Below are positions 2,432-2,494 of a DNA stretch of 10,117 nucleotides, piece after piece; within the stretch, counting starts at the first letter, position 1, and every line of letters begins with the position of its first letter. The stretch is from a virus (Duplodnaviria > Heunggongvirae > Uroviricota > Caudoviricetes), in the IMG/VR virus record IMGVR_UViG_2526164647_000013. One strand, given 5' to 3'. The notes under the pieces were generated by a model. That model did not search any database. It saw only the letters and a list, made by a program, of their open reading frames with translations, and was not told where the DNA came from. Position numbers and translations under genes: made by a program.

Positions 2432-2450
2432 GTTAATGATAATTATTTTC
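2432..2450 (+). promoter_or_regulatory. Fur box-like operator upstream of sitA
   Basis: GTTAATGATAATTATTTTC matches the 19-bp Fur consensus GATAATGATAATCATTATC at 16 of 19 positions; lies about 100 bp upstream of the sitA start and overlaps the candidate -35. Confidence 0.6.
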
Positions 2451-2474
2451 ATTTTGTATAGGTTATGCTATAAA
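2446..2474 (+). promoter_or_regulatory. Candidate sigma70 promoter of sitABCD
   Basis: -35 TTTTCA (2446-2451), 17-bp spacer, -10 TATAAA (2469-2474), assigned by eye. The Fur-like box overlaps the -35 and the MntR-like box overlaps the -10 and downstream, a standard repressor arrangement. Confidence 0.4.
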
Positions 2475-2494
2475 ACATAGCCGTTGCTATGTTT
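2473..2494 (+). promoter_or_regulatory. MntR-like palindromic operator upstream of sitA
   Basis: Perfect inverted repeat AAACATAGC-CGTT-GCTATGTTT, which resembles the MntR operator half-sites as I recall them from enterobacterial mntH/sit promoters; overlaps the candidate -10 and start region. Confidence 0.65.

Follow-up and report, generated by a model that had tools for sequence, protein, structure and literature searches.

A sitABCD control region with overlapping Fur boxes, a perfect MntR palindrome and a probable second MntR site

The region upstream of sitA in the viral record IMGVR_UViG_2526164647_000013 (a stretch of 10,117 bases, referred to here in its full length as the window) reads, in order, GTTAATGATAATTATTTTC (2432–2450), ATTTTGTATAGGTTATGCTATAA and AAACATAGCCGTTGCTATGTTT (2473–2494), and to judge from these sequences it is very probably a dual Fur/MntR-controlled sit promoter of the kind already described, with a probable second MntR site. 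It matches the operators of both repressors, the matches are statistically strong and conserved, and the region is identical to alleles with published Fur binding. A preliminary description made from the DNA alone had proposed the dual iron-Fur and manganese-MntR layout of enterobacterial sit operons, and this is supported by weight matrices, by the sitABCD genes that follow, by conservation among enteric bacteria and by the literature. Repression of sit by Mn-MntR and Fe-Fur is reported in Salmonella and Shigella (reviewed in PMC3852070; PMC8970401; PMC8432900), a Salmonella fur mutant shows 53.8-fold derepression of sitA, one of the strongest effects in that mutant (PMC3212961), and in E. 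coli CFT073 sitABCD is a direct Fur target, with both a chromatin immunoprecipitation sequencing (ChIP-seq) peak and derepression (PMC7157518). Mapping by ChIP with exonuclease digestion (ChIP-exo) also places sitABCD under Fur in two of three pathogenic strains (PMC10164565); the sit promoter of strain 042 is laid out like that of the window, with an operator differing at a few bases. Published work already covers the control of sit by Fur and MntR in Salmonella, Shigella and E. coli. The feature described here is genuine but not new, and the second, weaker MntR site is the only addition to the documented dual-repression layout. The elements of the control region are as follows.

2432–2450, no strand assigned: Fur box A, GTTAATGATAATTATTTTC, 16/19 to the consensus, 20.9 bits
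2438–2456, no strand assigned: Fur box B, GATAATTATTTTCATTTTG, overlapping box A at a 6-bp offset, 18.6 bits
2446–2451, + strand: candidate −35 hexamer TTTTCA, matching 4/6 positions, of the top-ranked promoter in a relaxed scan (predicted)
2456–2473, no strand assigned: MntR box 1 (weak, upstream), 18-bp site GTATAGGTTATGCTATAA, core ATAGG-TTAT-GCTAT at 2458–2471
2466–2474, + strand: candidate extended −10 TGcTATAAA, ranked first in the relaxed scan, predicted +1 near 2481
2473–2494, no strand assigned: MntR box 2, 9-4-9 palindrome AAACATAGC-CGTT-GCTATGTTT, 18-bp site at 2475–2492
2481–2484, + strand: predicted transcription start (2481 is 7 nt past the −10; 2484 is by analogy with the RybA/mntS 5′ end)
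2485–2493, + strand: alternative extended −10 TGcTATGTT of a second promoter (P2), ranked second, predicted +1 near 2500

The 19-mer at 2432–2450 had been put forward as a 16/19 Fur match, and it does differ from the Fur consensus GATAATGATAATCATTATC at three positions only; nothing else in the window comes within three mismatches, and 200 dinucleotide shuffles yielded no such match. The weight-matrix check that the preliminary description had suggested was run with a symmetric 19-bp Fur matrix built from 17 E. coli K-12 promoter regions, no sit sequence included, these being the targets listed as footprinted or gel-shift-proven by Chen et al. 2007 (PMC2189734). Because the consensus served as its seed, the matrix is partly circular, and a fair comparison has to rely on leave-one-out scores and the background rate: the 17 proven targets score 6.8–21.8 bits (median 14.5) when left out in turn, and none of 133,027 positions of other K-12 sequence reaches either the 20.9 bits of box A or the 18.6 bits of box B. 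By matrix score the two window boxes lie at or above most proven K-12 sites; the cut-off of Chen et al., who scored with a model of their own, was 10 bits. Fur clusters typically consist of overlapping sites 6 bp apart (PMC2189734), and the window pair, with its 6-bp offset, is a cluster under the definition of overlapping sites offset by 3 or 6 bp. The next-best Fur-like site in the window (CAATATGTTAAACATTATC, 2207–2225, 9.1 bits) lies ~225 bp upstream of this cluster and forms a 75% inverted repeat with 2437–2456; since about 2 in 10,000 background positions reach 9.1 bits, it may be due to chance.

The perfect palindrome reported at 2473–2494 is likewise confirmed. Its arms are 100% complementary over 9+9 nt, and it agrees at 16/16 positions, with no mismatch, with the enterobacterial MntR consensus AACATAGCnnnnGCTATGTT, a palindrome given as AACATAGC-N4-GCTATGTT in PMC1698941, where it is quoted from Ikeda et al. 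2005. No other position in the window matches this consensus with three or fewer mismatches, and nine of 200 shuffles gave any such match. Scored with a matrix from six K-12 ATAGC-N4-GCTAT sites outside sit (mntH, two in mntS, two in mntP, and dps), box 2 reaches 26.9 bits, a value attained by none of 103,740 background positions. The K-12 mntH MntR operator has the same 9-nt arms, and box 2 lies 33 nt upstream of the annotated sitA ATG.

The palindrome might alternatively act as RNA, as a hairpin or intrinsic terminator that ends upstream transcription or structures the sit leader, rather than as a protein site. A terminator scan flagged it (9-bp stem, 4-nt loop, followed by GTTCTAATTT) and its hairpin is present in the predicted fold. 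However, only three of the nine stem pairs are G-C, the T run is broken (tail GUUCUAAUUU), and the fold energy is ordinary (z = −1.26, with 24 of 200 shuffles folding at least as well). Moreover, a start at 2481–2484 would leave only the right arm transcribed. The half-site sequence is kept across species without covariation while the loop varies freely, which points to sequence-specific recognition by a protein. On the grounds of its few G-C pairs, broken T run, ordinary fold and lack of covariation the RNA reading was rejected, and we consider it most improbable.

Both hexamers of the promoter candidate named in the preliminary description are present, with TTTTCA at 2446–2451 separated by a 17-nt spacer from TATAAA at 2469–2474; the TGc in front of TATAAA, on which that description was silent, makes this an extended −10. 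A relaxed promoter scorer, which credits an extended −10 and which came within 1 nt of the annotated RybA 5′ end when applied to K-12 mntS, ranks this combination (TTTTCA-17-TGcTATAAA, P1) first within 2400–2530, at 13.3 against 12.3 for P2; in most enteric orthologs the Fur box is followed by TTTTCA or TTTGCA. Transcription would start near 2481 by this scorer and at 2484 by analogy with mntS. The most likely layout, as read from the sequence, is that of P1, with Fur over the −35, MntR box 1 over the spacer and −10, and the palindrome over the start. The earlier placement of the Fur box over the −35 holds for this predicted promoter, as box A covers five of the six bases of TTTTCA and box B all six, but the placement of the palindrome over the −10 does so only marginally: it overlaps the last two bases of the hexamer, and its centre lies ~2–3 bp downstream of the predicted +1.

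Two observations count against P1. A default promoter scan did not list it, because that scan requires a T at the last −10 position and TATAAA, without the conserved final T, ends in A; and P2, with +1 near 2500, scores nearly as well and would leave the Fur sites upstream of its −35. The real promoter may instead be P2 (−35 ATGCTA at 2465–2470, −10 TGcTATGTT at 2485–2493), with the MntR boxes over its −35 and −10 and Fur just upstream. In the plasmid and Salmonella alleles P2 scores as well as P1 or better, but its −35 matches only three of six positions, most Fur clusters overlap promoter elements (PMC2189734), and the annotated 5′ end of K-12 mntS, where the boxes are arranged alike, is the counterpart of a P1 start. 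We therefore regard P2 as an unlikely alternative; the MntR boxes overlap predicted core promoter elements under P1 or P2 alike.

With P1 as the preferred promoter, the region is best explained as the native regulatory region of the SitABCD manganese and iron ATP-binding cassette (ABC) importer, in which a predicted sigma-70 promoter would be almost fully covered by repressor sites. Iron-loaded Fur would bind the two overlapping sites 6 bp apart (2432–2456) that span the −35, and manganese-loaded MntR would bind the perfect palindrome (2473–2494) spanning the start site and probably also the weaker site at 2456–2473 spanning the spacer and −10. Either metal-loaded repressor would block RNA polymerase, so that the operon would be expressed only when iron and manganese are both scarce.

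Whereas the palindrome had been recognized as an MntR site from the outset, the second, weaker box at 2456–2473 had been missed. Its core has one mismatch in ten core bases, and the MntR core pattern with no more than one mismatch occurs only twice in the 10 kb, in the adjacent cores at 2458 and 2477. With the K-12 matrix that leaves out sit, box 1 scores 12.2 bits, a value reached by one of the 103,740 background positions; with a matrix made from its orthologs the score is 20.7 bits. The step from box 1 down to box 2 is exactly 19 bp, giving two 18-bp sites with 1 bp between them.

This spacing is conserved. In a comparison with 80 sitA loci collected from other species, two ATAGC-N4-GCTAT cores exactly 19 bp apart are present in 23/23 Enterobacterales sitA promoters (the window and the E. 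coli chromosome counted), and the sequence flanking the paired cores is not conserved. Betaproteobacterial sit loci have one MntR core; no MntR box was present in the alphaproteobacterial, Photobacterium and Halomonas sit loci examined, the alphaproteobacterial loci having Mur-type boxes instead. A Fur-type site of 13–22 bits is situated just upstream of the MntR boxes in Salmonella, Citrobacter, Raoultella, Klebsiella, Erwinia amylovora, Shimwellia, Phytobacter, Atlantibacter and Enterobacter. When the promoters are aligned on the boxes, the box-to-box spacing is constant and the Fur-to-box distance shifts by 1–2 bp between lineages, which fits a constraint imposed by contact between MntR dimers together with independent binding of Fur. 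A seeming split of the promoters into two layouts, one with 5 bp and one with 23 bp between the Fur and MntR sites, proved to be an artefact of picking only the best box in each promoter, as there are always two.

Six Pantoea sitA loci keep the 19-bp MntR pair ~45–100 bp upstream of sitA and have no convincing nearby Fur site (best 5.8–10.4 bits, ~180–200 bp upstream), which suggests that sit is under manganese-only control there. The Photobacterium loci are the opposite, with strong Fur boxes and no MntR box.

The geometry of the pair has a structural parallel in Bacillus subtilis, where cryo-electron microscopy of MntR on mneP reveals 18-bp sites 1 bp apart, contacts between neighbouring dimers and cooperative binding; paired MntR sites with the spacing of the mneP array also overlap the E. 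coli mntS promoter (PMC11882963). Tyr22 is essential for cooperativity of the B. subtilis protein. As the window boxes have the same 19-bp centre-to-centre distance as the touching B. subtilis dimers, the strong site may recruit MntR to the weak one, and by this analogy the pair may be filled cooperatively. Among papers other than the primary sit promoter reports, paired MntR sites are mentioned only for mntS and mntP, and no description of a second sit MntR box was found.

Several observations weigh against a functional pair. Box 1 is weak, its 12.2 bits and one core mismatch placing it below all six K-12 training sites (minimum 17.0), and chromosomal E. coli alleles differ in its left half (ATAGG, ATGGG, ATGGC); box 2 and the box 1 right half are fixed in these alleles, and conservation of that right half could reflect the −10 alone. 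The B. subtilis interface residues Tyr22, Lys20 and Glu55 align to Glu54, Val52 and Ile87 of E. coli MntR and are thus not conserved, only Asp27, Arg58 and Gly59 being kept (as Asp59, Arg90 and Gly91), so that cooperativity in E. coli would need a partly different interface.

These points bear on the possibility that the perfect palindrome is the only working MntR operator and that box 1 is a decaying relic whose right half is kept only for the −10. The disparity in score (12.2 bits against 26.9 for box 2) is consistent with decay, as are the varying left half among E. coli alleles in which box 2 is invariant, its degenerate form in Salmonella (ATACC) and Citrobacter (ATGCC), and the lack of conservation of Tyr22 in E. 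coli MntR. However, the left half is strongly conserved in other genera, the 19-bp spacing is invariant in all 23 promoters, and cooperative arrays use exactly such weak sites beside a strong one. In addition, the IncF plasmid sit allele has the strengths swapped, box 1 being perfect and box 2 carrying a single mismatch. On balance the relic is a possible but somewhat doubtful explanation. The broader proposal, for which we judge the evidence to be evenly balanced, is that an MntR operator pair at 19-bp spacing, cooperatively filled, with a Fur cluster alongside at a looser distance, is the ancestral and still functional enterobacterial sit design, and that the mntS promoter is a surviving copy of it. 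If so, having one operator over the −10 and the other over the start would give a steep, switch-like response to manganese, and mntS would have inherited the paired operator on arising from the sitA 5′ end.

The genes that this promoter would control and the remnant of the annotated sitA start are situated immediately downstream.

2527–2547, + strand: remnant of the annotated sitA start (ATG 2527, MHSIKK, stop TAA 2545–2547), out of frame
2550–3440, + strand: sitA, open reading frame (ORF) of 296 aa from the in-frame ATG, periplasmic manganese- and iron-binding protein, with matches to metal-binding-protein families and RefSeq homologs annotated as SitA
3440–4267, + strand: sitB, passing the NCBIfam equivalog cut-off (593.7 bits vs 393)
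4264–5121, + strand: sitC, permease family match, homologs annotated likewise
5118–5975, + strand: sitD, permease family match, homologs annotated likewise

The same DNA is annotated as sitABCD in 2,395 of 5,426 complete E. coli genomes and on many IncF plasmids. Homology between the window and the chromosomal E. coli sit locus extends from 2113 onward at 99.4% identity, with both operators base-for-base identical to those of the chromosomal promoter, which supports the earlier suggestion that the operon kept its native regulation despite insertion sequence (IS) activity around it. Upstream of 2113 there is a truncated Rac-type prophage integrase gene and an IS1 copy, and downstream of sitD there are phage tail-fibre remnants within 6176–8334, namely a DUF4376 protein (6176–6799) and a tail-fibre assembly protein (7963–8334), and then an IS3-family transposase fragment (8927–9613). 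With the integrase and IS1 on one side and the tail-fibre genes and IS3 on the other, the operon lies within a decayed prophage in which ~320 bp of native upstream DNA is intact. The window in its entirety was present in no E. coli genome and no PLSDB plasmid, and its IS-rich prophage remnant may point to Shigella.

The IS1 copy (647–1414, ~91% identical to IS1A) truncates the Rac-type integrase gene (intR-like ORF 1401–2054), and the intR-like remnant abuts the native sit upstream region at ~2113. The distance between intR and sitA in E. coli CFSAN029787 is ~47 kb, indicating that the window has lost intervening prophage DNA. The window ends (1–300 and 9805–10117) match insertion-sequence DNA flanking sit on IncF plasmids, so that the same IS types border sit in both settings.

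A block at 2256–2317 contains five copies of TTTTGCC(CC), mostly 11 bp apart and ~165–225 bp upstream of the predicted start; these phased T-tracts could bend the DNA. The window has four TTTTGCCCC units compared to three in E. coli chromosomal loci, and homology with the IncF plasmid allele starts only past the T-tract block, at 2312.

The poly-A tract at 2538–2543 is A6 in the window, a 1-nt deletion relative to the A7 of all seven E. coli loci read directly, and as a consequence the annotated 304-aa sitA start (ATG 2527) is out of frame. The next ATG, at 2550, is 2 nt past the stop and opens the 296-aa frame with a signal-peptide-like beginning. No identical match over 2500–2580 was found among 2,581 E. 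coli sit records. The exact 296-aa SitA was tried as a marker of A6 carriers and is recorded in 1,186 blocks, but all six loci examined carry A7; the look-up does not discriminate because gene callers choose the internal ATG. The A6 tract may be a homopolymer sequencing error or a real change that entails an internal start or termination-reinitiation, and the deletion at the sitA 5′ end may affect expression after transcription.

Sit is a virulence-associated manganese and iron importer in Shigella, pathogenic E. coli and Salmonella. Here an intact two-metal control region is retained although sit lies in a decayed prophage between IS elements, and for such an importer with intact control it follows that sit should still switch on under host metal restriction. 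The added value is modest and consists of the invariant 19-bp MntR pair across Enterobacterales and its link to mntS and to cooperative MntR arrays; the pair yields a testable prediction on the sharpness of the sit response to manganese.

The closest known systems are the sit promoters of Salmonella Typhimurium (Ikeda et al. 2005) and Shigella flexneri (Runyen-Janecky et al. 2006), which have the same operon and, as reported, the same repressor pair, manganese acting through MntR and iron through Fur (PMC3852070; PMC8970401). The Salmonella arizonae ortholog has the same order as the window, with a Fur box, MntR box(es) and then sitA. The window carries an E. coli/Shigella-type allele and differs from Salmonella in its stronger Fur box (20.9 vs 17.7 bits), its perfect box 2 (one mismatch in Salmonella) and a Fur box that is 1 bp closer to box 1.

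Among other MntR targets, E. coli K-12 mntH is reportedly also dually repressed by Fe-Fur and Mn-MntR, as described by Patzer and Hantke in 2001. It shares with the window identical MntR half-sites (AAACATAGC / GCTATGTTT) and an upstream Fur box (18.8 bits), but has one complete MntR box and only an upstream half-site. Its MntR box adjoins the ribosome-binding site at a distance of 13 nt from the ATG, and 16 bp separate it from the Fur box, compared to 23 bp in the window. The isolated CATAGC half-site (locus L082, 4745–4760, minus strand) is 11 bp upstream of the left arm of the mntH palindrome, an arrangement that differs from the 19-bp pair at sitA and mntS.

K-12 mntS (rybA) is similar to the window in having two MntR cores exactly 19 bp apart with the −10 in the right half of box 1, and the RybA 5′ end is annotated at the centre of box 2, 7 nt into its core, as predicted for the window. 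It differs in having no Fur box at the aligned position and a perfect TATAAT, and it encodes a 42-aa protein rather than a transporter operon. Wright et al. traced mntS to the end of an ancestral sitA that encoded the signal peptide, from which the association with MntR was also inherited; given this derivation from the sitA 5′ end, the mntS and sit promoters are plausibly homologous.

The B. subtilis mneP and mneS arrays (Shi et al. 2025) resemble the window in having 18-bp sites 1 bp apart, with weak sites filled through dimer contacts. However, the interface residue Tyr22 of B. subtilis MntR is not conserved in the E. coli protein, and those arrays have four sites and are activating, whereas the two sites of the window would repress.
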